Source: Raillietiella orientalis (Eukaryota). From it: DNA of 64,000 nt. The stretch covers positions 62,001 through 126,000 of the forward strand of contig JAYWIR010000053.1 of the NCBI GenBank assembly GCA_036172245.1. The letters are read 5' to 3'. The notes under the pieces are model-generated. The model worked only from the letters and a program-made list of their open reading frames with translations, was not told where the DNA came from and ran no database searches. Below, piece by piece: positions 4,937-60,770 of this stretch. The translations under genes and the position numbers were made by a program. Each line of letters starts with the position of its first letter. Within the stretch, counting starts at the first letter, position 1.

Positions 4937-5514
4937 CGTCGTCAAAATGTACGACGCCAAGATGAAGCGGATGAAAGCACGGAGACGAGAGCGAAGAAAA
5001 GCACGTCCGCACTCGATTGAAATCGCTCGCAATGAGGTGCGCCCTTCGCACGCCTGCTTCGGCCCACCAGTCTCGCCGCAGGGATTCGAAGAACGCAGTG
5101 CGTTCCTCGGCCCTGTGGCTGCCCTCCGGAGCGTACAGGTTCGTGACCACGAGGTCGATCGAGTCGGACAACTTGAGAACAAGCTGCCCAACTCGAACGT
5201 CCCCGTCGAACCGTGCACTACGCAGTGAGTTTTCGACGGACGGCTTCAGTAAAAAGGCCACTCCGCAGGAGTGATCTGTTCCGTTTCTCCACAGTAGCCT
5301 CCCCCTGCGATCCTCTCGAAATCCTGGCCTGCCTCTACTGTGAGCACGTGGGTCTTTTGCAGTAGAGCCAGGTCGAAGTCTCGCAGTATGGCGGCTACGT
5401 CTCGCCTCTTTCCGTCGCTGCTCAACCCGTTGACGTTCCAACAAGTAATTCGCAAGCGACGGCAGCAGGCGAGCCCACCCTTAGGTTTATTTATGGTGGT
5501 GTGGAGGAAACCGT

Positions 5515-7236
5515 CTATTTTTCAGTTAACGGGTGTTCCGCGTCCACGCCGACGGATTCGAAAGGAGTTTGGTGTGCTCCGTCGGCCGAGGACTGTGTCA
5601 ACAGTTGGAATAGGATGCTCTCAGGCGCAGAGTCGCACGCTGGAACGCACATTGACTCCTCCTCGCTGTCGGATGCCATTTCCACCTCTACCTGAGTGAG
5701 GACAGCACGCCTACGAGCTTTCGTTGAACTTTTATTTTTTCTTTTCGGCAACCCTACGGTCGACGAGTTTCAGGTTTCGGCGTCGGACTCGCTGTTTTCT
5801 GGGTCCTTCGCCGTAGCCGGGCGTCGAACGGCCTTCTTCTCGGACTTGACGGGCTGCCTTAACAAGGCTGCCAACTTTTCCGCGGCTTGCGCGAACGTTG
5901 CATCGGAGATGCGTTCCGTGTCATCGCAGACTTCGCCGCCTGTTGGCGAGTCCGGTGACGTCACTGCCGAATCGATAGCCGCAACCGGCGGGCTATCGAT
6001 CGGAACAGCAGCGGCTGAGCTTTCACTCGCCACTACAACAATTCCAGCGGACGGAACTGGAACAATAGTATCGATCGCGGCAACAGGTGCCGCGATATCG
6101 ATCGCTACCGTAGCGATTTCGGTGGACGGAGCCGGAAACGCTCTATCGATCGATGCCGCAGCCGCGGTATCGATCGACGGCTTGCTGGAGGAAGCCTTCG
6201 CGGTAAAGCGATCGATGTTTACGGTGGAACGACGGACGCTTTTCGCCACCGTTTTTACCGTTTTCTTTGGGGCCGTACCTTTCCCCTTGCTCTCCTTTTT
6301 TTTCATCAACTTCCAGCTGTTTTCGGAGACAGCTTCGCCATCCTCCGCCTTTTCTTCCTCCGACGTCGGTTTCTCGCTTGCTTGCGAGCTTTCACACGAT
6401 GGGGGATGCTGTTTGTCTTGCACCTGTGGCGACTTGGTTTTCTTGTTGCCAGCAGGAGTGGACGCAAAACGAGAAGGACACACCTTTCGTACGTGTCCCT
6501 TGGTACCACATCGGAGGCACACGATGTTAGGGCACCTCCGTTTGAGGTGTTCGATGGCCTCGCAATTTCCACAAAATTTTGGTTTCCCTATGTACCACAG
6601 GTCGATGTATTCATCATCGACCTGCAGTCGGTGGGGTAAACCACTTTCCTCTCGGACCGTCACACGCGCGGCGGCATAGCGACTGAACGCCCTGGTATAA
6701 CCCAGGGTGTTGGGCTTAGCCCACAGAGCGTGGACGGTGCCGTATTTCTCGAGTTGTGCTCGTACGGCGTTCTTTGCCATCCTCATCGTTATGCCCGTGA
6801 GGTGGACGACGATGGATTTGTCGGCTGTGAACGGGAAAATCCTTCTCTCGTTCACAGTCACCGGTAATCTCAGCAATTGCTGTGCCATTCCTGCAGTTCT
6901 GCAGTTCAGCTCGACGAGCTGACCGCCACTGCGCACGGAGAGGCCGAGAACTTCTTCTTCGGGCACTCTCAACTTTTTAAATTCCGCGGCGAACGTGCGG
7001 AGCATCACCGGCGAATACAACCCACCTACCTTATAGAGTAGGGACGGGTTGTATCCGTGGGCCTCGTAGGCCCGCTGTTCCTCTGTAAGAAGCGGCAGGG
7101 GCGCCGCCACTACCGCACTCCAAGCACTCGCCGGGGCGGGGGACGAATCCGTGGGGGAGCTGGCCCCCAAATCCATGGGTTGGGGGGACGAGGCTCGCTC
7201 GCCCCACTCCACCGCCTTAGCGGCGTCCTCATGCAT
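5515..7236 (-). pseudogene. K1 ORF1, two zinc knuckles, Ala/Ile/Asp-rich C-terminus
   Basis: MHEDAAK...GYNPSLLYKV; CGNCEAIEHLKRRC and CLRCGTKGHVRKVC; internal stop at 5770. Confidence 0.85.
5970..6220. repeat. Degenerate ATCGAT-containing low-complexity repeats in K1 ORF1 (xID motifs)
   Basis: Many ATCGAT hexamers; protein SIDTAAAASIDR...AIDI...AIDT...PIDS...AIDS. Confidence 0.6.
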
Positions 7237-7326
7237 TTCTGCCCAGGAACAACCGCGCTGAAAAACCCACAAACACCAGCAAAAACAGACGGTTTTCCGG
7301 AGCACCGAAAAAACACGTCCACTCAC

Positions 7327-8296
7327 CGCGGTGACGTCACTGCGGGCGCGATCGGCGCGGATTCGACGGTATCGATCGGTTTTACCGCTATTTTTTCCGC
7401 GGTTTTTATGACCGATACGCGTTCGATTTTCACCGAACAATCGCGGATCACCTGCTTCTTCTTCAGCGGTGCCGCCTTGTTGATCCGTTTGACCTCTTTC
7501 TTCGGGGCCTTTTTCTTCTTCTCCACCTTCTGCCAACCTTCCTCGTTCTCGGCGCTTTCTCCAGCTGGTTGTTCGCTGGTGGATGGCTGAGCAGCGGGTT
7601 GGTCGGCAGGGTGGGTTTCTGCCATTTCGTGACTCCGGTCCTGTTCCTTCGGCGTGTCTGCATTCCTCGCGCCTGTAGGAACTGACCTTCTTCTGTTGGG
7701 GCACATCCGCCTGATGTGCCCCTTTCCGCCGCAGCCCAAGCACACGATGTTGGGGCATCTCTTCTTCAGGTGCCCCGACACCTGGCAAAAGCCGCAGTAT
7801 ACGGGTTTCCCCACATACCACAGGTCGATCTCCTCCTCCCCGACCTGCAGTCTGTGGGGTAGCCCAGCCTCGGCACGTACCGTCACGCGCGCAGCGGCGT
7901 AACCACTAAATGCCCTGGTGTAACCCAGGACATTGGGTTTTGCCCACAACGCGTGGACCGTCCCGAACTTCTCCAAACTTTCCCGAACGGCGGTCTTGGC
8001 CATTCTCATCGTAATACCGGTGAGGTGGACAACGATGGAGTTGTCCGCCGTGAACGGGAAGATTCTTCGACCGTTCACGGTCACCGGCAGGCGGAGCAGC
8101 TGCTGAGCCATCCCTGCAGACTTGCAGTTCAGCTCAACCAGCTGCCCGCCACTTCGCACGGAAAGTCCGAGGACTTCTTCCTCCGGGACTTTCAATTTCT
8201 TAAATTCGGCCGCGAACGACCGTAAAACCGCGGGGGAGTACAGGCCATTTACCTTGTATAACAAGGCCGGGTTATACCCGTCGGCCATGTAAGCCC
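7327..8296 (-). mobile_element. LINE family K copy K2, ORF1 fragment (5' part missing, interrupted by K1)
   Basis: ORF 7323..8288 closely similar to K1 ORF1 (GYNPALLYKV; CGFCQVSGHLKKRC, CLGCGGKGHIRRMC). Confidence 0.87.
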
Positions 8297-9845
8297 GCGA
8301 AACGGAGGAAAACCGCTCCCCGCCGCGAAAAAACCAAGAGCTGCTGCGTCGTCGTAGTGTTTATTAACGCCATCGACCAATGCGGCGCTAAAGAACTCGC
8401 TGCTGCCCGTGCTTTACCCTCCGTTGACAAAGTCAACAGGGAGGGGAGCGAGGCTGCGGCGTCCGTCATCGAGCCCACGCTCGATCACGTCGCCTTTCAG
8501 CGTGCCGCGGAGGTGCTGGCTGCCTCGTTGTAACCGGCCGCCTTCAAGGCTGGCAAGAAGGCCGTCAGGCGTCCGGCTTCCCCTCAGGAGTCGGCCACTT
8601 CCGACCCCGAGGCGAAGGCCGGAAACAGAGCATCCATCTCCGCGGCACCCCGTAAAAAGGCAGGACGAAAGTCCACAATGCCCCTGGAGATCGTCTTCCC
8701 CGACAAAGGGAAAGAGATGGCTTCCGGTTGCGAGGGTGCCATGAGCGTGGGAAACTCCCGGGACCCGTCGCCTGAGAAACTCCCACGCTCCGGCTCGGAG
8801 GAGATGGACGGGCTGGAGGCCGAACCTGATCGGCCCCCAAAACTTACGGTGCCTGATCGGGCCAAGGTGCCTTTAGTGCCTGAAGAGGCCTCCTTCCCCA
8901 CGGACATCCCGAACACATGCCCCGCGGCAGGTGTCGCGACGCCACTTTCCCAGCCATAATGACGGGAATCGCCTCCCGTCTTCGTCTGCTGTTCGCCTGC
9001 TGGAACGTCAACGGGCTAAGCAACGACGGCAAGAGGCGTGACGTGGCCGCCACCCTGGCATCCTTCGACCTGGTGCTGCTGCAGGAGATCCACGTCATCT
9101 CCGCAGATCAAGCCCGGGAGAACGAACGGATCTCGGATGGTCGGATGCTGTGGCGCTGCGGTACCGCGAAATCTAGCGGTGTCGCCTTCCTGCTCCGACC
9201 AGTCATCGAGGCCGCAATAAAGGACTTACGGTTTGATGACGCCGGTCGCGTCGGTCAGCTGACTCAGCTGCTCCATCTCAATCGACCTGGTCGTCACCAA
9301 CTTGTACGCTCCTAGCGTTGAGGACGCGTTGCGGGCGAAGGCAAGAAGAGAATTCTACCTTGCCCTCGGACGCAATTGGCTGATCGAAGCAGACGTTTGC
9401 AAAGCGCACCTGATCGCAGGTGACTTCAAAATGCGCCTGCTTTCATGTGCGCCGGATACACTGAACGACCGCGTCAACAAGTTGTGCGCGCAAATGCATA
9501 CGTGCAACTTGCTGGCCGGAGATACGGACATGGAACGGAGCATCCATCAAGTGTACCTTGACCAGCACCTATGCTCTCGCGTGGGCAGGCGCGGCAAGTT
9601 ACGGTGCGAGCTGTCGGACCATGGCCGAATCGGGTTCGAAGTGCATCTGCGCCACAAGGGCCCCCCCTTGTCAGCGTGGCGTCTGCCAGGGAACTCTCTG
9701 AAGTTCCCGGACGCGACAGAACATCTCCGCGCGTTCATACGGAACTTCAGAATGCGGACGCTTCAGGACTGGGACCGCTTCAAGCTGTCTTCCCAGGAGT
9801 TCTGCGACCGGTTTCCTTTGCATCGCCAACCTGCGGGATTTGGGA
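8297..9845 (+). mobile_element. C-type LINE fragment E-left (ORF1 C-terminus + EN)
   Basis: Aligns to ~13915-15447; TAATG at 8957-8961; WNVNGL, LLQEIH, AGDF, SDH; ends at GGGATTTGGGA 9835-9845. Confidence 0.88.
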
Positions 9846-10056
9846 TTGTCACCCGGGTACGCCCGGGCCGTTTATTGAAAAAACTCTGGATAAACGTGGT
9901 ACGAGGCCTTACTAAGGTCCACACAACACCGGAGCTGCCGGGACGCTAAGACGCAGCCCGGCGTGACGCTCCTTGTCAGTGGAGGGGGATAGGGATCAAA
10001 ACAAAAAGAAAAATAAACATAAGGAAAACAAAGAAAGTTCAAGGGACAGGAAGGGA

Positions 10057-12834
10057 TCACAATCCACTAGGAGGTGGGCCCATCCTTCGCAGGATACCCT
10101 CCAGGTCCATGTTCATGCTTCCCAGATGGGGCCATCTTGCAGCTCTGCGCATGAAGCGGATCGCATGCAGGATGACATCCCTCGCGTGGGCATCGACTCC
10201 TCCGTCGCGAATGTCGCTCCAGGCGACCACGATGCCCCGGATGCAGCAGCGGGCTGCGGCGGGCTGCAGGGCGCCCCGCACGGAGAGGGGCCGAAGAACG
10301 ACTCTGGGCGCGCTGCCCATTGGGAGCCCCAGGGTCGTCCCGAACCGTTCCCACAAGGGTCGGAGGGCAGCAGAGACAACAAGTAGGTGGGGGAGCGATT
10401 CCCGCTTGCCGCACCTGGCACACTTACGCCTTATACTACCCCGGGTCCAGTGGAAGCGGCGCACGTTGCAGGGTAGACCCCAGTGCAACAGCAGCAGCGC
10501 CGACTCTTGCCACTTCAGGGGGAGAAGCCTGCATCCGAATAATATTGAGGGCCACTTCAGTTCATCCGTCGGCATGGCGAGCAGCTAGCCCCAGCGACCA
10601 AGTCCACTCAAGAGGGCACTCGGGGTCGTAGCATCTGCCAGTTCTTTCATGGTTCAACCGCCCATCTTCTTTTCCTTGCCTGCGATTCGGCAGGAGGCTT
10701 GCGACTTTTGCTTGCGGCCACTGGTTAAAGCCCTTCGTAGGTAGGGCAGGGTCGAGGCCAGAGTGGTAGTCTCCGCTTAGGTGCTCCTGGCGGGACACTC
10801 CAGAGTAGTCCGCAGTGTCCAGCAGGCGTTGGGGCCGAATTGCAGGCGGTTCGAGTCCTGGGAAGTCTGGAGGTTCAGATTGGCTTACGTCGCAACGCAT
10901 TCCTCCAGCCAGGCTGAGGAGTTGGCGGGCTGCATACCGTCCAGCCGTGGTCTCTCACCGGGGCTTCCATGCGCCCAAGGAGAAGGCCGCATCTTCTAAA
11001 CTTCCTGTCAGAGCACAGAAGGTACGACGAGAGTCCTTGCGTCCTGGACACACGGCTGGCAAGGATACGGGCCGGAACGCACCAAGAAGTGCTCCATGAC
11101 ATTGCTGCGATAACGAGTGTGCGGCATTGCAGCTGTATGTCCACGCGTTCCAGCGTCAGGAGGCCGAGACCGCCGTCCAGACGAGGAGCGCACAAGTCAT
11201 CTAGAGGCACACGTGGCATCCCGCTGCGCCAGAGGGCGATGCGGAGTAGGTCCTTGGTCCTCTTTTTAATGTCAAGGGGGACGGAACAAACAAAAAGCAG
11301 GGGGCGGAGGATGGAAGCCGCGAACGCGTTCCACACCGCGGCTCATTCCGGCAGAAGGAACAAGCCTTCCAGGAACGGGCCGATTGCCAACTCTACCTTT
11401 TGGAGACGACCAGTCCAGGCTTCTGCGAGGCAGAATTCCTTCAACGGGACACCCAGGTACTTCAAGTACCTCGCCGTGAGATCCATAAGCGGACCCAGTC
11501 CTGCTGCTCAGCCCACGCCGCACCTACCGGTACGACCGACGACTTCGCCTTGTTCACTGTAAGTCCGGTCCCGCGGCTAAGCACAGCGAAGAAATCCCCG
11601 ACCGCCTTCGCCGGGGTGGACATCGGCAACAGAGGCAAAAGATCGTCGGCGTACGCTGCTACGGCGGGCGTGCCGGTACACGACCTCGGCAAGGGAGCCA
11701 AATTCACCCTGTACGCTCTCAGCACCACCTCAAAGTAGGTGCTAAAGAGCAGGGGACTGAGACTGTCGCCCTCCCGTATGCCCCGCCGTACCGGCACGCC
11801 GTACGCCATTTGACCTCTGAAAGAGATATTGATCAGCGCGCTGCGCCAGCAAGAGCGCAGGTAGGTGAGTAGGGAGGGAGGAAAGCCCATGCGTCCCAGG
11901 AGCTCCAGCAGGAGATCCTGGTCCACGCAGTGAAACTCTTTATGCAGATCGACTGCGATAGCTAAGGCTCCCTTTTCCACCTGGGAGTCCTGTCCCTGCC
12001 CGGCTGACGCCCCCAAAGCGGGGCTACCAATCCTTCCCGCTTCCTTTTCTTCACTACTCTGCACATGAAACCATGTGCTCGCGAAGAAGAGGTTGGCCTC
12101 CATACTTCGCCCGGGAACAGCGTAAGTCTGCTCCGGGCTAATTTTGGAATTGGCCACCTGCCCCAGACACGAAGCCCACAGTCCGGCAATCAACTTGGCG
12201 TCCGTGTTCACAATTGTGATCGGACGCCAGTTGCTGAGTTTCCTGAGGTCTCCTCCTTTCGGAAGGAGCCTCACTCTGGCTGATCGAAACGAGGCGGGTA
12301 CATCGCCTTCATCTCGGCTCAGCCTTGTCAACTTAAGCACCAGGGGTGCCAACTCTTCCGCGAAGCATTGAAAAAACTCCGCAGGCAGGCCGTCCTCCCC
12401 TGTTGCTTTCCGCCTCTTGAGCCTTTTAATACCGGCGAGAATTTCGCCGGTGGTAAAAGGCTCGTCGAGGCTTTCCTTCTCCTCCTCCCCTATTAACGGG
12501 GCACCGTTCGGAAGCAAGCGCCGAGAGGCATCTTGTTCCGGATGCTCCCTGGCGTAAAGGGAGGAATAATAACGCCGCACGAGGTGGCGTATTCTAGCCG
12601 TAGCCGAGTGCTCCCGGCCCTGGTCGTCCAGCAAACTGGCCGATTCTGATTGCCAGGCTTGACTTTCGACCCCGGCTCGGTACTCTGCCAGGCGACGGAC
12701 ATTAAGGGTCCTCGCGTAACGACGGGCATACAAGTACGCTTCTTCGTTACGGATCCCCTCCCCAAATTTCCGGGGCAGGAGGTGCAAGGTGAACTCCTCG
12801 CAAAACTCGCAAACCAATTAGCGAGATTGCGGAG
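10057..12834 (-). pseudogene. D ORF2 3' part (RT + C-terminal CCHC)
   Basis: NWRPIT, GIREGDSLSPLL, YADD, CARCGKRESLPHLL. Confidence 0.9.
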
Positions 12835-12919
12835 CGTCGAGCGGACGTGTCTTTTCGCTGCTCCTGAATTTCCATTTCCGGTGGTGTTTTGTGTGGTGTG
12901 GGTGGAGGATTAGGCAGCA

Positions 12920-14559
12920 ATGCCTGATTCCACCACCGGTGAGATTCCGGGGGCGATGACCCCATTGCCCACGGAGGAGATGGAAGTGAGAGCGCCCGCC
13001 ACTACTGATGCGCCCCCAGCCTAACCCAGGGCTTAGAACGCCGTGACTGCCGCGCCCACGCCGGCGGCTGTGGCAGAAATGCGGGCCTACCTGGAGGAGG
13101 GGTACAACCCACCCCTCCTATAAAAGGTGGGCGGATTATATTCTCCCCAGAGCGCGCCCGCCTTCTCGCAGGCGATGCGCGCTCTCGACGTAAAAAAGGA
13201 GGAGCTTCTGGCTATGTCCGTCAGAAGCGGGGGTCAATTTGTGGAAGTTATCTGCAACGAGGCAACTCTTGCGCAGAGACTTCTGCGAACCCCAGTAACT
13301 ATGGGCAGACGGAGGCTTCTCCCAATTACTGAAGACCGGTCGGTGATCATTCACCTGACCGGTATCACGTTCCGGATGACCAAGGAGGCAGTGCGGAACG
13401 AAATAAATAAATTTGCGACCGTCCACGCGCTGTGAGGTAAGCCTACTCCTTTCGTTGATTTCGATAGGGTGCTTGGCGGCCTGGATGCGGCGCGAGTGAC
13501 GGTTCGCGAAGGTGTGAGTTTCCCCACTATCTCACCGTAAACGGTGAATCCGTCGACGTGTGTTACGTGGGGAAATCCAAGTTCTGCGGCTGCTGCAGCA
13601 GCTTTGGTCACCTTAAAATGAGGTGTTCGAGCGTGCAGTGCCAGCAATGCAAACAAGCGGGGCACACCCTTCTGGTGTGCCCCCAAAACACAGTCCGCGT
13701 CGTGTACGCGAAAAACGCGAGAAAGCGCGCGGCTAAAAAAAGAGAGAAGCTATCAGCTCGTGCTGCTGCTAAGGAGGTCACCTCCGCCACCAAGTCCAAG
13801 GCCAGCCCCGAGACCCCGGCGAAAAATGCCTAAAAGGTCGAGGGCGATGGTCAAGAGCCAGGGTGGCAGAAGGTCGACCCCAAGGAAAAAACCCATAAGA
13901 AGGGAAAAAACGTGGCGAAACGGAGCGAAACCGCTCTGCGCCGCGAAAAAATTAAAAGCTGCTGCGTCGTTATAGAGCGGATTCCCGCCATCGACGAATG
14001 CGGCGCTGAAGAACTCGCTGCTGCCCCTGCTCAACCCTTCGTTGACAAAGTCAACAAGGAGGGGAGCGAGGCTGCGGCGTCCGTCATCGAGCTCACGCTC
14101 AATGACGTCGCCTTCGAGCGCGCCGCGGAGGAGCTGGTTGCCTCGCTGCAGCCGGTTGCCCCCAAGGTTGGCAAGAAGGCCGTCAGGAGTCCGGGTTCCC
14201 CTCAGGAGTCGGCCACTTCCGACCCCGAGGTGACGGCCGGAAACACAGCATCCATCTCCGCAACACCCCGCAAAAAGGCAGGACGAAAGTCCACAATGCC
14301 CCAGAAGATAGTCTCCCCCGACGAAGAGGAAGAGATGGCTTCCAGTAGCGAGGGTGCCATGAGCGTGGGAATCTCCCGGGACCCGTCGCCCGAGAGAATT
14401 CCACGCTCGGACACGGAGTGGATGGTGAGAATCGAGGCCGAACAGGTACCCCAGGCGCCTAAAGAGGCCTTCGTCCTCGTTCCGATGGTCCTCGCACCGA
14501 TGGACTTTTCCTACACCTGCCCCGCGGCAGGTGCCTCGACGCCACTTTCCCAGCTATAA
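12920..14559 (+). pseudogene. C1 ORF1
   Basis: AYLEEGYNPPL; CGCCSSFGHLKMRC, CQQCKQAGHTLLVC; several stops and frameshifts; TAATG at 14557-14561. Confidence 0.86.
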
Positions 14560-15447
14560 TGCCGTGAATCGCCTCTCGCCGTCGTCTTCTGAACGCCTGT
14601 TGGAACGTCAACGGGCTAAGCGACGACGGCAAGAGGCGTGACGTGGCCTCCACCCTGGCATCCCGCGATCTGGTGCTGCTGCGGGAGATTTACGTGATCT
14701 CCGCAGATCAACCCCGGGAGATCGAACGGATCTCGGGTGTGCGGTTGCTGTGGCGTTGCGGCACCGCGAAATCAAGCGGTGTCGCCTTCCTGCTCCGGCC
14801 AGCCATCGAGGCCGCAATAAAGGACGTTCGGTTCGAAGACGGAGGTCCCGTCGGTCAGCTGACTTTCAGCTGGTCCGACTCTATCGACCTTTTCGTCACC
14901 AACCTATACGCTCCTAGCGGAAACAACGCGTTGAGGGCGAAGGCAAGAAGGGAATTCTACCTTCCCCTGAGACGTGATTGGCTGACCGATGCAGGAGTTC
15001 GTAAAGCTCACCTGATCGCAGGTGAGTTCAACCTGCGCCTGCTTTCTGGTGCGCCGGATACACTGAACGACCGCGTCAACGAGTTGTGCGCAAAAATGCA
15101 CACGCGCAACTTGTTGGCCGGGGACACGGCCATGGAAAGCAGCATCCATCACGTGTACCTTGATCAGCACCTATGCTGTCGGGTGGGCAGGCGCGACAAG
15201 GTACCATCCGAGCTCTCGGACCATGGTCGGATCATGTTCGAAGTGCGTCCGCGCGAAAAGGGCTTCTTCTCGTCAGCGTGCCGTCTGCCAGGGGACTGGC
15301 TGAAGTTTCCCGACGCATCGGAGCACCTCCGCGCATTTATTCGCAGCTTCAGGATGCAGACACTTCACGACTGGGACCGCTTAAAGCGGTCGGTCCAGGA
15401 GTTCTGCGACCAGTTCCCCCTGCATCGCCTACCTGCGGGATTTGGGG
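14559..15447 (+). pseudogene. C1 ORF2 endonuclease domain
   Basis: WNVNGL, NLYAP, AGEFN, SDH, FPLHRLPAGFG, then the B1 3' end. Confidence 0.9.
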
Positions 15448-18020: not shown

Positions 18021-18246
18021 GGGATTTGGGGTTTACACCCGGGAACGCCCGGGGCGTTTATTGTATAAAGCTCTACAAGAAAACGTGGTACAAGGCCCCA
18101 CTAACGGCCACACAACACCGGACCTGCCGAGACGCCGGGACGCAGCCCAGCGTGACCCTCCTCGGCTGTGGAGGGGGATAGGGATCAAAACAAAATTGAA
18201 AATCAAAATAAAGCAAAACAAAAAGAGTTTGAGGGAGGGGGAGGGA

Positions 18247-23591: not shown

Positions 23592-23691
23592 CGGACACCA
23601 ACGATGTGAAAAAGCACACACTGAACCCAAAAAACCGCTTTCCGCTGCTCGTTCGCGGAGCGCCGGAAAAACACGTCCGCTCTCGAGGAGA

Positions 23692-41345: not shown

Positions 41346-41375
41346 AATAAACGCCCCGGCGTGACCGGGTGATAA
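41346..41375 (+). terminator. Conserved 3'-terminal AATAAA + CCCGG-N5-CCGGG hairpin, representative copy
   Basis: Related ~30-nt end on 10 elements; function is inferred. Confidence 0.6.
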
Positions 41376-41462
41376 ATTTCAATCGAGTGCGGACGTGTTT
41401 TTCTTCGCTCTCGTCTCCGTGCTTTCATCCGCTTCATCTTGGCGTCGTACATTTTGACGACG

Positions 41463-46300: not shown

Positions 46301-46965
46301 CCAACCGGCGAGGTGGGAGGTTTCCTGCACAATAGCGGGAAAAAACAAACCCCTTGGTGCCTGGAAGACGAGTGAGCTGGCGGACGCCTCCACTCCTCGT
46401 GTTACTGCAATGGGACTTCTCCGATGGGCAGAAGAACTTGCTTTCACCCCCGAAGAACTCGTAGTCCCTTCACAGTGTATTGAGAGTTCGCTGCTCTTCC
46501 TTGCCTGGAAACAAGCCGTGTTTCTTTTCGTTCACTGGGGTTTTCAGTGCAACGAGCGTTGGCATCGTGACACCGGGGGACTTGCGTCTGCGAACTGCGT
46601 TTAGTGCGGATCGACGGAGTCGATTCCGCACCTACTTCTGGACTGCGGTGTCCTACATGTACTGTAGCGTAGGCTAACAACAGCACTAATGCATCCCGTG
46701 GACACCGGAAGAGTCTTGCTGCGACGATTCTTCACGCCGAGCGGGCTGTCACTAAGCGCAAGGATGGCAACCATTGGTTACATACGCGCGATAGTTTCCG
46801 TCCGCCAGGCGTTGGTAATCAACGGACAGCACCAAGAGGTAATCAGCAAAGCATCCTTCTACATGGGAGCATTTGCTAGATGGCCTCATTTGACAGAGGA
46901 GACAAAAAGGAATCTCTGGAATACACCGCCGGTTTACACACGCTCAGCAGCGGCCAACCCGGTGA
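43374..46965 (+). pseudogene. A2 ORF2 (EN-RT-CCHC), disrupted
   Basis: 839-aa open segment 43620..46139; YADD mutated to HADD; stops at 43568, 46139 and 46604. Confidence 0.92.
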
Positions 46966-47278
46966 TCATTGCCCTACCCTCCATAAACTATTTTTGTATT
47001 TTCTTTTTACACCCGCGTCCCCATAGGCTCCGGAACATTTTAGGTGCTCTTCGTTTAAATACCCGTGAGTACGGAGCCTAACCAAAAACCCGTTACCCTT
47101 CCCTCTAGTTTTTGATTTTTGTTTGTTTCCCCTCATTCCTCCCACGTTGCGAGCGGTGTGTTTACCAGGCCTGCGTGCCGGTAATTTTTCTATGTTCTCG
47201 GTCGTTTTCTTGGTTGGGGACATTGTCTTTGACCAGTTTATTATTATTAATAAACACCCCGGCGTGACCGGGTGATAA

Positions 47279-50200: not shown

Positions 50201-50414
50201 AGCCGCAGCCATCCTTGCCTTGTGCTGTGTCCGTAGCATCGTGGCGGCATGGAGCGACGCCAATAACGAAGGAGTGGGTCCACACGCGAGGGATGTCATC
50301 CCATACGCCCAACGCTTCATGCGGAGAGCTACCGGATTGCCCCAACTGGCGAATATACGGACGGACCTCGAGGGCTTCCTTCAACGGATGTGCCCTCCTC
50401 ACAGCGCTCAGTGA
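47279..50414 (+). pseudogene. H ORF2 resumed (EN C-terminal half, RT, CCHC)
   Basis: FNLRL, IDH, SDH; GIRQGDSLSPLLF, YADD; CVRCGERESFSHLIVDC. Confidence 0.9.
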
Positions 50415-51162
50415 TCCCTTCCCTGCCCTCCAACTTCTTTTTGTCTGTTTATTTTTTTATTTTTCTTTTTGTTTTATCCCCATCCCCCTTCGCTGCTGAG
50501 GAACGCTACGCTGGGCTGCGTCCCGGCAGGTCCAGTGCATATGGCCGTGAGCAAGGCCTTGTACCGCGGATGTAGAGTTTTTTAAAAATAAATGCCCTGG
50601 GCGTACCCGGGTGTAAACCTCCAAGGCTGGCAAGAAGGCCGTAAGGCGTCCGGCCTCCCCTCAGGAGTCCTTCACTTCCCACCCCGAGGTGGAGGCCGGA
50701 AGCGCAGCCTCCGTTTCCACGGCACCGCGCAAGAAGGCTAAACGTAAGTCCACAAAGACAAGGAAGCTCGTCTCCCCCGTCGAAGGGGAAGAGATGGCTT
50801 CCGCAAGCGAGGGTTCCATGAGCGTGGGAAACTCTCGGGATCCGTCGCCCGAGAGACTCCCACGCGCGGACACGGAGGGGATGGAGGGGGTGGAGGCCGA
50901 ACAGGTGCCTCAGGTGCCTGAGAAGGCCGAAACCCCCATGGTCATCCCGCCCGCCTCGCAAGAGGAGGGCTCCCCAAACCTTAATCTTCCCAGCAGTAAT
51001 GCCGGGAATCTCCTCCCGCCGTCGTCTGCGCATCGCCGTTTGGAACGTGAACGGCATGACAGACGCCGGCAGGAGACGAGACATGGCCGCCCTTCTGGAG
51101 TCCTACGACCTTGCGCTGCTGTAGGAGATCCACGTGATCTCTGCAGAACAAGCGCAAGAGAT

Positions 51163-54100
51163 TTCTCACCAGGTTACGCCGGGGCGTTTATTCCATATAA
51201 CATAACCAAAAAAAGCAATTATACAAAATAAACCAGTTGGGAACCAAACTCCCAACCGACGACTGAACAAGAATGAAGAGAATATTGCTGGCACGCAGGC
51301 CAGAGTAACAGTTTCTTGAACGGTGCGGGGGGACGGGAAAAACAAAGAAACCAAAATAAAATAGAAACAATGAATAAGGAGGACGGGATAAGTGTCTTTG
51401 GGATCGCTCTGGAAGACACAAGGATAAAAGCATGGGCACCGGAAATTTTACCGAGCGAACGGGAACGGGGTATGGGTGGGCGAGAGGTCGCAGGGGCCAC
51501 CGGATTACGCCGTTCTCAAAGGTGTGTAAACCGGCGATGTATGCCGGTGATGTACTCATTCACCTTGTCACGAAGATGAGACCACCTTGAAGCCTTCTCC
51601 ATGAATTGAGCTGCAAGCAGGTGAGCCTCCCTTCGCTACGATGACAACTTCAGGGCGTAGCGGGCCTTCACGATGGCGCGAACGCAACACATGGTTGCGA
51701 CAATCGCGCCAACCGAAAGTCCATTTCTGCTGAAGAAGCGCCGCAGCACATCAATGGCAGTGCCTCCTTTTGGCATGATGGCCGAAGTGAGCCTTCGCCA
51801 CAGTTCCCGGAGTTCACCGCAGTCCAGCAAAAGGTGCGGAAAAGATTCGATCTCTCCGCACCTTAAACAGTTTGGCAAAGCAGCTCCCCCGGAAACGATG
51901 CTTCGCTGCCCATTACAGTGTAATGCACAATGTGAAAAGAGCAGCACATCTTGCTTCCACTTAAGGGGGAACCTGGAGCTGCCCAAGCAAACGGGGGGAA
52001 CCAACATCTCTCCGGGGGGCACACTTAAGTGTTCGCTCCACCGAAGCAGGCCCTTCGCCCGATTCCGAGGTGTGGAGGCTTGCACCAGCTCCTTTGTCTT
52101 CCAGCTGCCGAGGAGCTTACTGACTTACGCTATTTTGCAGGAGAACTTTTATTCCGCCGGCAGGCAACCGTCGTTGCCTGCCCTGAGGGGAGACAGCGCT
52201 ACGGAGAGTGGTGTGGCGGCCAGACGATCGGACAACTTCTTGTCCTGCATGACTTCGTCCATTTGATGAATGAGGAGAAGTCGCAGGCGTCGAAGATCTT
52301 CCGGGCGCGTTCCTTCGGAAGCTGCCCACGATGAAAAAGATTCCTGCCGCCATGCATTAATGTTCATGGGGCGGCAGGAGATCCAGCTTTGGGCTTCCAG
52401 CAGTGAGGACAGCTGCCTCAGCGGGAAGCCAAACCCTATTCTGGTGTGCCGAAAGTGGAGTAGCAACGAAAGCAGTCCCTCGCTTCCCGTGCAGCGCCTC
52501 AGTATAAGGCGTGCGGGTAAGCACCACGGCGTACACCTCAGCTCGGCACAGAGCCGAGGCATGCGAAACTGCACCTGCAGTTTGATGCTGTTTAAGTTGA
52601 GGATGCCAAAGCCTGCATCCTGATGCGGCATCACAAAGTCTTTAAGTCTAACACGGGATCTTGCAGCGCCCCACAACGCTTTGAGTAGAAGGCGCTGCGC
52701 CCAGACTTTGACTTCCTGGGGGGGTGGACAAACAAAAAACAGGGGGCGGAGGAGAGGGGCAAAGAAGGTGTTCCAGATGCAGGCCCGTTCCGGCAAGACG
52801 AACTCGCCTCCTGAAAACGTGCCAAGTGCACGCTCTGCCTTCCGAAGGCAGTCCGACCACGCTTCTGAGATGCAGAAGTCGCCCAACGGCACGTCAAGGT
52901 ACCTGAGGCACCTGTCCTTGGGGATCCCCAGACCGATCCAGTCGTAGTGCATATCCCACGTCGCAACCACCGGGACAACCATACACTCACTCCTTTTAAC
53001 GCTCACGCCGGCACCGCGACGAATCAACTCAAAGAAGTCTTCAGGCGATGTCACAGGGGTCGACATGGGCAACAGGAGAAGCAGGTCGTCGCCATAGGCT
53101 GCTACGGCAAGCGTACATGGACAGGAGCTCGGCAGGTTGGATAGCGTCAGCCTGTAAGCTCCCAACACCAATTCAAAATAGATGCTGAAGAGCAGCGGGC
53201 TTAAGCTATCACCCCGCCTAATTCCTCGTCGTACTGGCACGCCATACACGCGACAGCCACTGAAAACAATGGATGTAATCGCGTGGCGCCAGCAGGAGCG
53301 CAGGTACGCCAACAGGGATGCCAGAAGACCCAGACGTTCCAAAAGCTCAAGAAGAAGCTTTTGGTTCACGCAATCTAAAGCTTTGTGCAGATCGACTGCA
53401 ACCGCCAAGGCTCCCGGTGTCTACCTTTGCGTCCCGCGCCTTCGTCGGTGAGAGATCGCAGGCGTCGCTTCCGCACGACGATCCACCGCCACACGATGCT
53501 GCAATTTCAGTGATGTACGGATGAACAAGAGATTCGCGTCAATGGACCGCCTAGGAACAGCGTACGTCTGCTCCGGACTTACCAAGGATTCCGCGATCCT
53601 ACCCATCCGCGCCACCCGGAGTTTCGAGAAAAACTTGACGTCTGAATTCACTAATGTGATAGGACGTCAGTTGTTCAGTTGGCGCAAATCTCCGCCTTTC
53701 GGCAGTAGACGCACCTTCGCTGATCGAAACGAGGCGAGCACATCGCCCGAGACTCGCATCAGCGCCGAGAGTTGGAGCACCAGGAGGATGAACTCCGCCG
53801 TAAAACACTGAAACAATTTCGAGGGGAGCCCATCTTCGACTGGCGTTTTTTGTCTCTTGAGCTCCGAGATGGCCGAGGAAATTTCCTCTGCCGTGAAGGG
53901 CTCATCAAGACGCGCGCGATCCTCGTCGTCTACAACGGGTGCATCAATCGGCAGAAGCAGCCGGAAGAGGCTGCTTTCCGTCGGTGCCTCTGTATACAGA
54001 AAAGTGTAATAAAGCCTGACTATCAGTCGCACGTCGGCTGGAGCCGAGCATTCACGGTCCTGGTCGTGGTGCAGTACTGTCGCCTCTGACTGCGAGACCT

Positions 54101-54213
54101 GGCGCTCGGTCTTGGCCTTGTACTCGGAAAATCGACCAAGGTCCGACCGCCTGGAAAATGAGCGGGCCTGCAGAAAAACTCTACTGTTGGCTGCGCCCTC
54201 TCCGAAGCCGCTT
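51163..54213 (-). mobile_element. LINE family F (A-related) 3' half: linker, RT, CCHC, 3' UTR
   Basis: GFGEGAANSRVFLQARSF; GIRRGDSLSPLLF, YGDD; CLRCGEIESFPHLLLDC; AATAAA-hairpin at 51163-51192. Confidence 0.88.
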
Positions 54214-54232
54214 TTAAGCGGCTTCGGAGAGG
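54197..54232. repeat. Perfect 17-bp inverted repeat with 2-nt loop at the F/B3 junction
   Basis: CCTCTCCGAAGCCGCTT-TT-AAGCGGCTTCGGAGAGG. Confidence 0.95.
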
Positions 54233-57200
54233 TTTGGGACGACGAACCCTCTGTTTGCACAGAGGGTGCGCTGCGCGAATCGCACGCCGAAATCGAGGAC
54301 GCCGCGTTCGCGCAGGCGGCGGAGGAGCTCGCGGCCACGCTGGCCGAGCATGAGAATCCCTCGCGCAAGGCCGTGCGAAGGCCGGCTCCGCCGAAGAAGG
54401 CCTCCGCAGGGGAGTGCTTCCTGGGGGCCGGAAGTGCATCCTCCTCGTCGGAGGCACCCCCCCGGAAGACGGGACGCAAGTCCCAGAAACGAAGGAGGCG
54501 CCTCCCCTCCACGAGCGAGGAGGAGAAGCAGGAATCCGACGGCAGCGTGGGAATCCCGGAGGGGAAATCGCACGCGCGGAAGTTGTCGAGCAGGCCACCC
54601 CCATGGAGGAGGGTGAGCATAGGGGCGAAGTCCTCCTTGTCAGCGCGGACCCTGTACAGCCCACCCCTATAGAGGAGGGATAACAGATAGGCGTGACCCC
54701 ACCGGAGGGTGACCCGCCCGACGCGCCGTCACCGATGGAGCAGGAGGACCAGGTGCTCGAGGCACATGTGCCTCCGGCTCCACCTAGTGTGCCGCCCCAA
54801 CAGGTGGCCGACGCCGCCGAGTCGATTTTTAAGGAACAACACCTGGGCTCGCCTGTCGCCGTCGAATCCGCGTGGCCAGTTGGGACGTCAAGGGGCTGCG
54901 CGACGACGTCAACAGACGAGATACGGCCGACACCCTGCGTGAGTTCGACCTGGCCCTGCTGCAGGAGATCGACGTGATCACCTCGGCAGACGTCCAGGAG
55001 ATGGAGACGATCGCGAGGGGTCGACTGTATTGGCGATGCGGCGCTCGCAACACCTGTGGTTTCGCGTTTTCCGTGAAGCCGGCCATCGACGCTGCCGTGA
55101 AGGGCGTACGCTTCGATGACGACGGTCGGGTCGGTCAGCTGACTCTCAGCTGATCCGACTCGAACGAATTGATCGTCACGCACGTGTACGCCCTAAGAGG
55201 GAAAGGGGGATACAGAGACCGTACCAGGTTGCTGGAAACCCTGAAGCGCGACTGGCTGGCCGATAGGAACGTGCGGAAGGCACACCTGATAGCTGGGGAC
55301 TTTAATCTCCGTCTGCTGTCAGGTGAGCCTGAAGCACAAGAACGCACGGCCAGCGAGCTGTGCGCTGCCATGCGCACGCGCAACTAGTTGGCGGGCGCGG
55401 AGCGAATGGATCGCAGCATCGACCCTTTCTTCCTGGATGTCGACCTGTGCTCGAGGGTCGGCAAACAGAGAAAAGTTGCGTCGACGCTGTCGGACCATTC
55501 CAGGATAATCGCCGAGGTTTGCCCGCGCTATAAAGGACCCCTGTCCAGGGCTTGGCGGCTGACTGGGGACTGGACGCGGTCCTCAGGTGCGAAGGAACAC
55601 CTTCGCGAATTCCTGAGAGGCGTCACCCTCCGCAGTATGAAAGATTGGAACCTCTTCAAGGCCTCGGTCCGCGAGTTCTGCGAGGAGTTCCCCCTTCACT
55701 GCCTGCACCTTGGATTTGGTAAGAGGGCTTGGAACCATAGGGCCTATCTACAGGCCCGCCGGTACGAGAGGACCCCCAATGTCCGTCGCCTGGCCAAATA
55801 TCGAGCCGGGGCCTAGCGTTAAGCCTGGCAATCTGGTTCGGCCAGCTTGCTGGACAACCAGGGCCGGGAGCGATCAGCCCCACCCGCAATCAGGCACCTC
55901 GTGCGGCATTATTATTTCTCCCTCTACGCTAGGGCGCCCCCAGAGCGGGACGCCTCGCGGCTCCTGCTTCCGGGTGGAGGCCAGACAATAGGGGACGAGG
56001 AGAAGGAAAGCCTCGACGAGCCTTTTTCTACCGGTGAAATTCTCGCCGATATCAAAAGGCTCAAGGAGCGAAAGGCGCAAGGGGAGGACGGCCTGCCTGC
56101 GGAATTCTTTCAATGTTTCGCGGCAGAGCTGGCACCCTTGGTGCTTCAGTTGAACGGGCTGATCCGAGACGAAGACGACGTTCCCGCCTCGTTTCGGTCA
56201 GCCCGTGTGAGGCTCCTCCCGAAGGGAGGAGACCTGAGATCCTTAGGCAATTGGCGTCCGATCACAATTGTGAATAGGGACGCCTAGCTGGTCGATGGAC
56301 TGTGAGCTTCGCGTCTAAGACAGGTGGCAAACTCCATAATTAGCTTGGAGCAGACATACGCTGTTCACGGGCGAAGTATGGATGCCAACCTGTTCTTCGC
56401 GAGCGCATGGTTCCATGTGCAGCGCTGCCTGAATAAAACTGGCGTAAAGATTGGCAACCCCACTTTGGGGCCGCCAGATGGGCTGGGAATGGGCACCCGG
56501 GCTGGTAAGGGGGCCCTAGTGATCGCGGTCGATCTCCATAAGGCGTTCGACTGCGTTGACCAGGAGATAATGCTGTAGCTTCTGGGTCGAATGGGCTTCC
56601 TACCCTCCCTTCTCTCCTTCCTGCGCTCCTGCTGGCGGAATGCGATGATTATTGTCTCTTTGAGCGGTCACAAGGTTTATGGCGTGCTGGTGCGGCGGGG
56701 CATACGGCAGGGCGATAGCCTCAGTTTCCTGCTCTTTAGCACCTACTTTGATTTGGTGCTGAGAGCGTACAGGGTGACTTTGGCTGCCCTGCACAGCTCG
56801 TGGCCCTGCACGCCCGCCGTAGCAGCATACGCCGACCACCTTCTGCTCATGTTGCCTATGTCCGCCCCGGCTGCCGCAGTCGAGGATTTCTTCGACCTGC
56901 TAAGTCACGGGACTGGACTTCGGGTAAACAAGTCGAAGTCGTCGGTCGTACCGGTGGGTGCGACGTGGGTCGTACGGCCTGACAGGATCCGCTTGCTGAT
57001 CCCCGCGGCCAGGTACTTAAAGTACTTGGGTGTCATGTTGGGGGAATTCTGTGTTGCAGAAGCCTGGCAGGTCGTCTCCAAAAGGTAGAGTTGGCAATCG
57101 GCCCGTTCCTGGAAGGCAGGATCCTTCTGCCGGGACGGGCCGCGGTGTGGAACGCGTTGGCGGCTCCCATCCTCCGCCTTCTGCTTTCTGTTTGCCCCGT

Positions 57201-58644
57201 TTCTTGTGACATTCAAAAGAGGACCAAGGACCCACTCAGCATCGCCCTCTGGGGCAGCGGGAGGCAACGTGTGTTTCTAGATGACTTATGCGCTCCTCGT
57301 CGGGACGGCGGTCTCGGCCTCCTGACGCTGGAGCGCCGGGATATACAGCTACGATAGCGCACCCTCGCCATTGCAGCAAAGTTATGGAGCACTTCTTGGT
57401 GCGTTCCGGCCCGCAACCTCGCCAGCCGTGTGTCCAGGACGCAAGGAATCGCGTCGTACCTTCTGTGCTCTCGCAGGAAGTTCAGAAGATGCGGCCCTCT
57501 CCTTGGGCGCATGGAAGCCCTGGTGAGAGACAACGGTTGGACGGTATGCAGCATCGCCAACTCCTAGGTCTGGCTGGAGGAATCCGTTGTGACGTGGGCC
57601 AAGCTGAACCTCCAGACTTCCCCGGACTGGAACCGCCTGCGATACGGCCCCAACGCCTGCTGCACACTGCCGACTACACTGGAGTGTCCCGCTAGGAGCA
57701 CGTGGGCGGGACTACCACTCTAGCCTCGACCCTGCCCTACCTACGAAGGGCTTTAACGAGTGGCCGCAAGCCAAAGTGGAAAGTCTCCTGCCGAATCGCA
57801 GGCAAGGAAAAGAATATGAGCGGTTGGACCATGGGAGAACTGGCAGATGCCACAACCCCGAGTGCCCTCCCGCGTGGACTTCGTCGATGGGCGATCTGCT
57901 CGGCATCCCGACGGATGACCTGAAGTGGCCCCCAATATTAATCGGATCCAGGCTTCTCCCCCTGAAGTGGCAAGACTCGGCGCTGCTGCTGTTGCACTGT
58001 GGTCTACCCTGCAACGCGCACCGCATCCACTGGACGCGGGGAAGTGTAAGGCCTGAGTGTGCCATTTATGGGAAGCAAGAATCGCTCTCTCACTTACTTG
58101 TTGACTGTGCTGCCCTCCGTCCCCTGTGGGAACGGTTCGGGACGACCCTCGGGCTCCCAATGGGCAGCGCGCCCAGAGAAGTTCTTCGGCACCTCTTCGT
58201 GCGGGACGCCCTGCAGCCCGCCGCAGCCCTCGCCGCCTTCTGCTGCATCCGGGGCATTGTGGCGGCCTGGAGCGACATACGCGACGAAGGAGTGGATGCC
58301 AACGCGAGGGATGTCATCCCGTATGCGGTCTGCTTCATGCGGAGATCTGCGAGATGGCCCCATCTGGGAAGCATGAAGATGGACCTGGAGGGCATCCCGC
58401 GGAGGATGGGACTTCCTCCCAGTGGATTGTGATCCCTTCCCCTCCCTCCAAACTCTTTTTCTGTTTTCCTGATCTATATTTTTTTTTGTGTTTTGATCCC
58501 TATCCCCCTCAACTGCCGAGGAGCGCTACGCCGGTATGTGTCCCGGCGTCCCGGCAGGTCCGGTGTTGTGTAGCCGTTTGTGGGGCCTCGTACCACGTGC
58601 ATGTAGAGTTTTCAATGAACTCCTTGGGCGTACCCGGGTGACAG
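54233..58644 (+). mobile_element. LINE family B copy B3, 5'-truncated in ORF1
   Basis: EPSVCTEG ORF1 tail; EN; RT (YADH); ORF2 stop at 58432; 3' AATGAA-hairpin followed by CCGCAAATCCC. Confidence 0.9.
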
Positions 58645-59382
58645 CCGCAAATCCCGAAGGAAGGCGATGCAGAGGGAAATGGTCGCAGAACTCCTGGATC
58701 TACCGCTTGCAGCGTTCCCAGTCCTGAAGTGTCTGCATCCTGAAGCTCCGAATAAACGCGCGGAGGTGTTAAGCCTCGTAGGGAAACTTCAGCCAGTCCC
58801 CTAGCAGACGACACGCTAACGAGGGGGGGCCCTTGTCGCACGGACGCACTTCGAACATGATCCGACCATGGTCCGAAAGCTCGGATGGTACATTGCCGCG
58901 CCTGCCCACCCGAGAGCATAGGTGCTGATCAAGGTACACGTGATCGATACTGCTTTCCATGGCCGCATCCGAGGCCAACAAGTTGCGCGTGTTCATTTCT
59001 GCGCACAACTCGTTGACGTGGTCTTTCAGTGCACCCGGCGCAGCTGAAAGCAGGCGCAGGTTGAAATAACCAGCGATCAGGTGCGCTTTGCAAACTCTTG
59101 CATCGGTCAGCCAATCGCGTCTCAAGGCAAGGTAGAACTCCCTTCTTGCCTTCGCCCTCAACGCGTAGTTTCCGCTAGCAGCGTATAGGTTGGTAACGAA
59201 CAGGTCGATAGAGTCGGACGAGCTGAGAGTCAGCTGACCGACGCGACCTGCGTCCATGGAACCGAACGTCTTTTATTGCGGTCTCGATGGCAGGCTGAAG
59301 CACGAAGGCGACACCGCGTGATTTCGCTATGCCGCAACGCCACAACAGCCGTCCACCCGAGATCCGTTCGATCACCTGGGCT
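58645..59382 (-). mobile_element. C-type LINE EN fragment C' bounded by B3 and G
   Basis: AQVIERISGGRLLWRCG...KARREFYL...IDH...SDH...FPLHRLPSGF. Confidence 0.88.
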
Positions 59383-60770
59383 CGTACAGTGGAGACGTGT
59401 TTCCGCGTCTATCCGCGCCAACGATCGGGCAACTTTGTGCCTGCGTTTTCGCTCGCACTTGTGTGTTCCTGTGCAATCTGCCAAGTAGCATAATGCAACA
59501 TGCCCAGTACACAGGATTGTGTGGAGGAGCAAGCTACTAGATGCACTTCAGCAGCACTTGAAGTGGCCGCATCCTCCGTCATGGTTTCCTTGCCCCCGTT
59601 GAGGAGTTACGCCGCCGTTAGTTCCTAAAGACCAGGACCCTGCGATGCAGAGTTCGAGGCATATGTGTCATCAGGATACATGCCTGCACTCCGTTATAAG
59701 GTCAGTGGGCCCCTTAACGAAAGAATCAGTCGTGAGCTCAACGATGAGCTCGTCCGGATCGGCGTTCGCGAGGAGGAACTCCTTGCATAATGCCTGCTGG
59801 CAGGATGGAATATACGAAGATTCGGTGCGAGAACGCAGCACTTGTGCAGCGCCTTATTCGTACGCCGTTGACCATCAATGGCAAGGAAGTCCTACCTACC
59901 GCGATGGACGACTCTTTTGTCGTTCAATTGTGCGACATCGAACAGGAAATCTCCGCCCGCGATGTCGTAAGTGTGCTGGTGAAGTTCGCCACCGTGCACG
60001 CTCTGTGGAGGAAGCCAAATCCTCTAAAGGATTTCCCCTCTGTCCACATTGGACAACCCTCCGCGCGGATCACCGTCACGAACAGGAGTGTTGTGCCTGA
60101 GCAGCTGCAGGTGAACGGCACGGTCGTTTACTTGTGGTTCATAGGCCAGGCTCGCGCGTGCGAGCAGTGCGGCAAGGAGGGGCACCGAATTAAAGAGTGC
60201 CCCTCTCCAAGATGCCGCTATTGCAAAGATTCCGAACACGAAATCAAAAAGTGCCCGGTACTTGCAAGAAAAAGAGCCGCAGCGGAAATTCGTGGGGTTC
60301 AAGACACCACTGCACGAATAGCCGCAGCGGCAAATAAAAAACGTCGTCCGCAAAAACTCGCAAAAAACCACGAAGGATACGCGGATGAAAAGAAAGCATC
60401 CCCGATCGCAACGCCCCGAAAGGGGAAAGTCAAGGCGGGGCAGCCAATTAAAAAGAGGCGCGAGGGTTTGACGTGTGCCGTTCCTTCCCTTTCTGCCGAA
60501 CTCCCAGGCACCTCTCCGAGCCAGGAACCAGGAAATCTCCGTAAAACCTTGGAGGGAAAGGTAGGAAAACAGAAAGATCGCAACAGTGCGAAGACTTCTT
60601 GCCCCGTTCCGTTGTCCCTTCCGAGTTCCGGACAGCCCCACTGCAGCGCAGGGCCCTCTGCAAAGGCTACGAAAGTCGTAAAAAGCAGCGTCGCGACGAG
60701 CAAAAGCACGCTGCATGCAGTCGCCCCATCGCCCACTCGGCAGTTTTCCCCAAGTCCCACGAGGGGTGGG
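59383..60770 (+). mobile_element. LINE family G (A-related) 5' UTR + ORF1 fragment
   Basis: 5' GGAGACGTGTTTCC; GYMPALRYKVSG; CEQCGKEGHRIKEC, CRYCKDSEHEIKKC; cut by J. Confidence 0.86.

Follow-up and report, generated by a model that had tools for sequence, protein, structure and literature searches.

The 64,000-nucleotide stretch analysed here (the window; Raillietiella orientalis, assembly GCA_036172245.1, contig JAYWIR010000053.1, positions 62,001 to 126,000 of the forward strand) is derived throughout (1-64000) from long interspersed nuclear elements (LINEs), as seen by self-comparison and by mapping that used three of its own copies as references. Within this LINE-only cluster, families A and B recur, each at its own short sequence in the second open reading frame (ORF2) of another family, in a fixed orientation and with a duplication of fixed length, and we suggest that the cluster was probably built by sequence-specific, target-primed insertion of at least these two families into the ORF2 of others. 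The case for site-specific insertion is good in A and B, and suggestive in the A-like elements F and G. An earlier note on this DNA had proposed a network of families with partitioned target sites; this is supported in part, A and B each having a site of their own, whereas C, D and K are each seen in a single event, and F and G on one side of the insertion each.

On the basis of identity tables over seven regions, the copies form at least four families: A with a sister group F/G, B with D, C with E, and K. The three A copies (A1-A3) share 90-96% mutual identity over the regions, and F and G stand at 55-70% as an A-like sister group; the B group consists of B3, B4, B' and B1 and is joined by D, which is B-like (70-83%); the C group holds C2, C0 and C5 at 80-90%, with Cx and E as C-like elements; and the K group holds K1 and K2.

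All 13 junctions that the earlier note had listed exist, and 11 are exact to the base (5016, 35461, 41376, 47279, 9835, 15437, 18021, 23692, 58645, 12821/26507 and 7327); the two F/G junctions, placed there at 51151 and 59371, are present some 10 bases away (at most ~11), at 51162/51163 and 59380/59381. The recurrences resolve into fewer loci than coordinates, given that 35461 and 47279 are two sides of one A site and 41376 is the duplication between tandem A copies, just as 15437 and 23692 are two sides of one B site and 18021 is the duplication between tandem B copies. Counted as independent loci, there are two for A, three for B, one for C, two for F/G (one side each) and one for K (5' side only). 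The prevalence of LINE-in-LINE junctions, which had also been emphasized, is real and by itself trivial, because the window contains LINE DNA only.

Target sites of families A and B

The A target, GATTTCAAT, corresponds to the GDFN codons of the endonuclease and is occupied, with an 8-bp duplication, in two unrelated hosts, D and K1, which together carry three A copies (A1 and A2 in D; A3 in K1). D is split at GGAG-ATTTCAAT-CTACGCC (that is, its G-D-F-N-L-R codons) and carries A1 and A2 head to tail, the 8-base target standing before, between and after the two (35461-68, 41376-83 and 47279-86), and the 5' end of A3 meets the same target sequence in K1 (5016-5023). The segments involved are the following.

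1-5015, minus strand: A3, family A copy; 5' end at 5015, 3' end off the window; 93.6% identical to A2 over 5,027 bases; 5' motif at 4996-5010
5016-5023: A target copy ATTTCAAT (element strand) in the GDFN codons of K1; the only intact GATTTCAAT in the window
5024-7327, minus strand: K1, 5' untranslated region (UTR), ORF1 and endonuclease up to GDFN; host of A3; 5' motif at 7308-7322; placed by endonuclease alignment
33161-35460, plus strand: D, 5' part, B-like; host of A1 and A2
35461-35468: A target copy ATTTCAAA
35469-41375, plus strand: A1, full-length A
41376-41383: A target copy ATTTCAAT separating A1 from A2
41384-47278, plus strand: A2, full-length A
47279-47286: A target copy ATTTCAAT
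47287-50617, plus strand: D, 3' part to its 3' hairpin end

The insertions into D and K1 were independent events, because the flanks of the two hosts are 65.3% identical over 453 bases whereas the adjoining A sequences are 95.7% identical over 460. Nor is the A1-A2 pair a recent local duplication, since all three A copies, the tandem pair included, are equally far apart (93.3-93.9% mutual identity). Within the window GATTTCAAT occurs only in D and K1, both occupied, and the eight other GDFN copies examined (A1-A3, B3, B1, B4, C2 and C0; C5 was left out) are all empty. These read GACTTCAAC in A1-A3, GACTTCAAT in B3, GACTTTAAT in B1 and B4, GAGTTCAAC in C2 and GACTTCAAA in C0; six of the eight (A1-A3, B3, B1 and B4) differ from the target at third codon positions only, and C2 and C0 also have an amino-acid change in the motif. 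Target copies within one occupied site differ as well, with ATTTCAAA at 35461-35468 and ATTTCAAT elsewhere.

The B target, GGGATTTGGGG, corresponds to the GFG codons of C-type copies, where B lies antisense with an 11-bp duplication (three loci, four copies). The 3' ends of B1, B'' and B4 join the same base of C0, C2 and C5, respectively, after GGGATTTGGGG or a one-base variant of it, and the site in C2 holds two B copies in tandem (B'/B'' and B3) with three identical 11-base targets (15437-47, 18021-31 and 23692-702). A search of the window for the 11-mer GGGATTTGGGG with at most one mismatch gave seven matches, five of which adjoin a B end, including all three exact ones; the remaining two, in K1 and G, adjoin none. 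By family, the GFG site is occupied in three of three C-family copies and in none of seven others (A1-A3, B3, B1, B4 and D).

The B insertions are nested with one of family C. C2 (12835-15436 plus 23703-26506) interrupts B1 in its TLRNL codons, between the two copies of a perfect 14-base duplication (12821-34 and 26507-20), and the 3' end of B1 in turn sits in the GFG site of C0, so that the nest reads C > B > C > B, with two rounds of B into C and one round of C into B between them. Because C2 lies in B1 with a perfect duplication and itself carries B'/B3, the order of events was C0, B1, C2 and then B'/B3. Reciprocal targeting, as the earlier note had claimed, therefore occurred at least once, with B into C and C into B in one nest, which is composed as follows.

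8297-9834, plus strand: C0, C-reference 1081-2605, ending at GFG; 83.5% identical to C2
9835-9845: B target copy GGGATTTGGGA
9846-12820, minus strand: B1, 3' part, B-reference 2696-5682; 3' end at 9846 adjoins the GFG codons of C0
12821-12834: 14-bp duplication GCGAGATTGCGGAG in the TLRNL codons of B1, left copy; 14 of 14 bases equal to 26507-26520
12835-15436, plus strand: C2, 5' part, from the full 5' end to GFG
15437-15447: B target copy GGGATTTGGGG, one of three at this site
15448-18020, minus strand: B'/B'', one B copy with both ends complete and a ~3.1-kb internal deletion
18021-18031: B target copy GGGATTTGGGG between the tandem B copies
18032-23691, minus strand: B3, full-length B of 5,660 bases; Pfam endonuclease and reverse-transcriptase domains
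23692-23702: B target copy GGGATTTGGGG, 5' side of B3
23703-26506, plus strand: C2, 3' part to its 3' hairpin end
26507-26520: 14-bp duplication, right copy
26521-29364, minus strand: B1, 5' part with complete 5' end; ORF1 region 59% identical to B3

The B copies of this nest are also mosaics. Measured against B3, B1 has 59% identity in the 5' UTR and ORF1 and 78-87% elsewhere, and B' has 73% in ORF1 and 94% in the endonuclease; such divergence (59-73% in ORF1 versus 78-94% in the endonuclease, reverse transcriptase (RT) and C terminus) suggests an exchange of modules between lineages. Given this mosaic divergence, B1, B' and B3 are different subfamily members and not copies of one insert. As a separate observation, B'/B'' has complete 5' and 3' ends around a gap of ~3.1 kb at 15740/15741 (B-reference 2296 joined to 5377), and the break lies ~30 bases upstream of its own GDFN codons.

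Orientation is consistent at every recurrent site, as had been claimed (A sense in 2/2 hosts, B antisense in 3/3, F/G antisense in 2/2). Assuming uniform insertion over an element of ~5.5 kb in either orientation, our arithmetic puts the odds of one same-base repeat at ~1 in 11,000, and chance coincidence is excluded for the A and B sites. Two of the four sites, AQEI (the F/G site) and GDFN, belong to the endonuclease domain as delimited by Pfam (residues 30-237 of a 334-residue B3 piece), in agreement with the earlier placement of the sites in the endonuclease region; TLRNL and GFG instead fall ~40-70 codons downstream of that domain, in the linker before the RT (counted on the translation). 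All four span ~720 bases of the B reference.

Other junctions and the anatomy of the elements

The F/G insertions are seen from one side each. F joins E with its 3' end after CAAGAGAT (51162/51163), and G joins C5 with its 5' end at CCCAGGTGAT (59380/59381), both antisense; these are two events, at most ~10 bases apart in the target, in two different C-like hosts, and if the duplication were ~10 bases long they would fall at the same site. Compared with C2, the E side is 66-84% identical and the C5 side 84-91%, and a C2-C0 comparison stays even across the AQEI junction; E and C5 are different elements because the identity to C2 jumps from ~72% to ~89% at the junction. The same jump led us to reject an inversion joining E to C5 and F to G. 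A single host made of C5 and F was likewise rejected, as F is 61-70% identical to A versus 47-63% to C2 and Cx, and the GFG copies differ. The remaining segments are listed here.

7328-8296, minus strand: K2, ORF1 fragment broken by the 5' end of K1; 6517-7075 versus 7740-8298 is 75% identical; read from the translation
29365-31708, plus strand: Cx, 3' part of C-like type, from C-reference 3054 to the end; possibly what is left of C0 after ~450 bases were lost
31709-31720: 12-base spacer TCGGAAGATTGA separating the 3' end of Cx from the 5' end of E
31721-33160, plus strand: E, 5' part, C-like subfamily; host of D
50618-51162, plus strand: E, continuation, C-reference 1325-1888, ending at AQEI
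51163-54215, minus strand: F, 3' part of an A-like element; 3' end in the AQEI codons of E, other boundary at its own GFG codons
54216-54231: perfect 16-base inverted copy of adjacent F sequence
54232-58644, plus strand: B4, 5'-truncated B, B-reference ~1252-5682; 88% identical to B3
58645-58655: B target copy GGGATTTGCGG (host strand)
58656-59380, minus strand: C5, C fragment from AQEI to GFG; 88.7% identical to C2
59381-60775, plus strand: G, 5' part of an A-like element; 5' end adjoins the AQEI codons of C5
60780-64000, minus strand: L, distant LINE running off the window; RT domain; boundary approximate

Two further insertions are single. D lies in the linker between ORF1 and the endonuclease of E, in sense orientation, with a degenerate duplication (8/11 bases), and K1 breaks into the ORF1 of K2 with its 5' end, the only side of it present in the window. 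By eye, the 12-base spacer between Cx and E resembles the C2 duplication. Position 5477 was rejected as a junction, as similarity between families ends there inside one K element. L, which is inserted near the end of the G ORF1, is more distant from the other LINEs; it has an AT-rich 3' end and is missing the shared hairpin motif.

The copies share their termini. A common 5' terminal motif has 11 matches versus 2.4 expected, and nine of these were read as element 5' ends, two matches with three mismatches (32675 and 42089) being set aside and the 5' ends of E and G being read by eye; complete 5' ends are present in 11 of the 14 copies whose 5' state can be judged. The common 3' end consists of AATAAAC, a short GC-rich palindrome and two to four A residues (ten such ends), and a poly(A) run was found at 0/10 of them. 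A structural hairpin was considered for this end and dropped: the motif is conserved as sequence, with structure unsupported, because an alignment of the ten ends gives a 5-pair stem without compensatory change. An AATAAA lies ~25 bases before every element 3' end (for example, 41346-41375), like a polyadenylation signal, yet poly(A) is absent. In A1, A3, C0 and E, the stop of ORF1 and the start of ORF2 share the overlapping string TAATG, with the boundary seen, for example, at ~3200 (A3, minus strand), 9000 (C0) and 50950 (E). Variants of this boundary include a stop two codons past the overlap position in C2, TAACAC in place of TAATG in B-type copies, and an 11-base deletion in A2 that fuses the ORF1 and ORF2 frames.

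Pfam finds apurinic/apyrimidinic endonuclease-like (APE-type) and RT domains encoded in the window elements. The B3 piece scores 54.7 bits for PF03372 (cut-off 24.5), with L1-EN as the nearest solved chain, and in comparison with solved structures its GDFN aligns with that of L1; the RT domain scores 66-69 bits for PF00078, and its nearest solved chain is human L1 ORF2p (E value of 1e-36, versus 1e-13 to 1e-14 for R2). For ORF1, zf-CCHC scores 16.6 bits against a cut-off of 20.8, and Cys/His knuckle-like strings are visible in the translations. With target-site duplications of 8, 11 and 14 bases flanking the insertions, as well as the endonuclease and RT domains, the copies share features of the L1 superclade of non-LTR retrotransposons, and the elements are best read as bicistronic LINEs with an APE-type endonuclease and an RT, L1 being the nearest solved relative.

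A protein database search with the A ORF2 returned as best relative an unnamed protein at 55% identity, and the other 22 matches, which include charophyte alga and orchid proteins, are at or below 30%. We would tentatively take the source of the DNA for a green alga. A scan of viral contigs with the A ORF2 protein found no relatives, a protein atlas gave generic LINE clusters only, with uninformative taxonomy, and an Rfam scan at E values up to 1 found no ribozyme (three weak matches, all far below gathering scores). Five metagenome loci that match the 3' end pattern were dropped as chance matches, because none resembles the window by blastn or tblastx. Finally, contigs from a sequencing run containing 8% of the sampled words were placed on 8200-28199 at 80% likeness, and 693 mapped, 395 of them less than 90% alike. 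One joins 15436 to 23692 with 11 letters shared, as an empty GFG site would; with a shorter side of 26 letters, against a bar of 31 in the tool, it was not counted. Most of the other joints listed for the run have offsets that fit the spacing of paralogous copies (8.0-8.3 kb for B1-B3; ~5.66 kb for the tandem copies), and a few others remain. Summed depth of the run contigs is ~530 in the bin 26209-26875, compared with 3-38 in the other 29 bins.

Insertion mechanism and competing explanations

We suggest that A and B integrate by target-primed reverse transcription, each at one short sequence that would be read by the endonuclease of the element itself. For A, the 3' end would be joined in sense orientation at GATTTCAAT (coding for the catalytic GDFN motif of the D and K endonucleases) with an 8-bp duplication; for B, the sense strand of the C family would be nicked after GGGATTTGGGG, in the endonuclease-RT linker, giving an antisense insertion and an 11-bp duplication. 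Similarly, C may insert antisense in the B-type linker with a 14-bp duplication, and F/G may insert antisense at the AQEI codons of C-like endonucleases. Since every duplication creates the target anew, another copy can insert next to the one already there, which would leave a tandem pair with one target copy between, and repeated rounds of such insertion could produce nests such as C > B > C > B and, ultimately, a LINE-only island.

The host ORF2 is interrupted at these sites, as the earlier note had proposed; its additional proposals, that a competitor is thereby harmed, that host genes are avoided and that the families hold partitioned niches, would be interpretations of this arrangement. 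One such interpretation, which we put forward tentatively and regard as possible but on balance doubtful, is a long-running conflict between LINE families in which endonucleases read functionally constrained ORF2 sequences of rivals (catalytic GDFN in the case of A), rivals could escape by synonymous changes only, modules are exchanged and LINE-only islands arise as a by-product.

Several observations sit uneasily with site-specific insertion as the builder of the cluster. The counts are small and come from one 64-kb window, in which there are no intact copies (the longest open frame has 856 codons) and no sign of present activity. There is one event apiece of C into B, of D into E and of K into K; B-like D occupies a site other than that of B; and empty AQEI sites in B-type copies closely resemble the occupied ones. 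Two B ends also depart from the expected arrangement. The 5' end of B1 (29364/29365) adjoins not GFG but a C-like RT region (C-reference ~3054), where either the host has lost ~450 bases or another element forms the flank. B4, at its truncated 5' end, adjoins F exactly at the GFG-homologous codons of F, which by our count differ from the B target at 5/11 bases, so that B4 is flanked by two different families, each broken at GFG; the joint carries a perfect 16-base inverted repeat (54198-54231), and it may be that two GFG sites were cut by the B endonuclease and then bridged by the insertion.

Among other explanations, the one that fares best, although we still consider it unlikely, is that sites are chosen by pairing of a read-through 3' RNA tail (carrying the previous target) with the new target, the endonuclease being little specific. 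Such pairing would fit the precise 3' ends without poly(A), the target copies that sometimes differ between the 3' and 5' sides (as in A and in the 8/11-base duplication of D) and the position of the B4 5' end at homologous codons of F despite their differing sequence. However, duplication length is fixed per family (8, 11 or 14 bases), which argues for two positioned nicks, and occupancy tracks single-base differences in the target.

It is considerably less probable that the recurrent junctions descend from one ancestral junction, through segmental duplication (which the earlier note had named for a possible refutation) or through retrotransposition of a composite (C carrying B). In family B, host-host identities (82-89%) do resemble insert-insert identities (81-87%), and the groupings of hosts and inserts are congruent (C2 with C5, and B3 with B4), although waves of insertion activity would also be expected to yield such congruence. 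For A, this origin is ruled out by the contrast between host flanks (65%) and inserts (96%). For B, a single copied junction is ruled out for at least three of the four insertions, because of the nest order (B1 into C0, C2 into B1 with its perfect 14-bp duplication, and then B into C2) and the mosaic divergence of B1, B' and B3, which uniform decay cannot yield; the three B sites moreover differ in content, one holding a full-length copy, another a tandem pair that includes a deletion, and the third a copy truncated at its 5' end. Judged on divergence only, the C5/B4 junction could have been copied from that of C2.

Regional insertion only (for example, in heterochromatin or a centromere), with the coincidences due to chance or assembly artefacts, is barely credible: every insertion into an all-LINE window must hit a LINE, but the same base, orientation and duplication length recur in diverged hosts, and perfect duplications flank complete elements, which assembly error would not make.

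Relation to known LINE systems

We rate the system of the window as Zepp-like nesting combined with site-specific LINEs. For Zepp (Coccomyxa/Chlorella) and ZeppL (Chlamydomonas), nested LINE clusters formed by insertion into existing copies are described (PMC3446292, PMC8226300), and the window resembles these in being a LINE-only nested cluster grown in the same manner. It differs in that several families each land in another family and not in themselves, at sites that are exact to the base with fixed duplications, and in the state of the copies: where Zepp arrays are described as mostly 3' ends, with frequent 5' truncation (PMC8226300), complete 5' ends prevail here. A further difference lies in the poly(A) tail, which Zepp has and which the 3' ends of the window lack.

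In its features, the system is also similar to LINEs of the Tx1 and R1 clades, which have an APE-type endonuclease, one sequence in a multicopy target and precise junctions; A and B both show this one-sequence insertion into a repeated target. Transposons are mentioned among the targets of sequence-specific LINEs (PMC4640811). Unlike the target of Tx1/R1 elements, that in the window is coding sequence belonging to further autonomous LINEs within the same superfamily, and the targeting is reciprocal between B and C. Tandem dimers arising by double insertion of transposable elements at one site appear in a preprint that does not concern algae (bioRxiv 10.1101/158386), and the head-to-tail pairs A1-A2 and B'-B3, with one target copy between, are of this kind.

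Homing endonuclease genes and mobile introns target conserved catalytic-site codons, and share with family A a target that is hard for the host sequence to change (here the GDFN catalytic motif); they differ in homing through DNA as opposed to reverse transcription, and the targets in the window are selfish elements, not host genes. We found no description in the literature compared of multi-family, site-specific and reciprocal targeting of ORF2 by LINEs; the original accounts of Zepp insertion sites stand outside that literature and may bear on novelty.

If the arrangement extends genome-wide, it would provide a base-level mechanism for the growth of LINE-only nested clusters of the Zepp type, which are centromere candidates in green algae, and would add a new target class for sequence-specific LINEs, namely coding regions in rival LINEs, a catalytic motif among them. 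If this reading is true, the families would constitute a natural panel of related APE endonucleases with differing 8-14-base specificities, and competition between transposable elements would become directly testable through synonymous escape, self-immunity and module exchange. Should the more tentative conflict reading also prove true, mutual targeting would both build and maintain the LINE-only islands that serve as green-algal centromere candidates.

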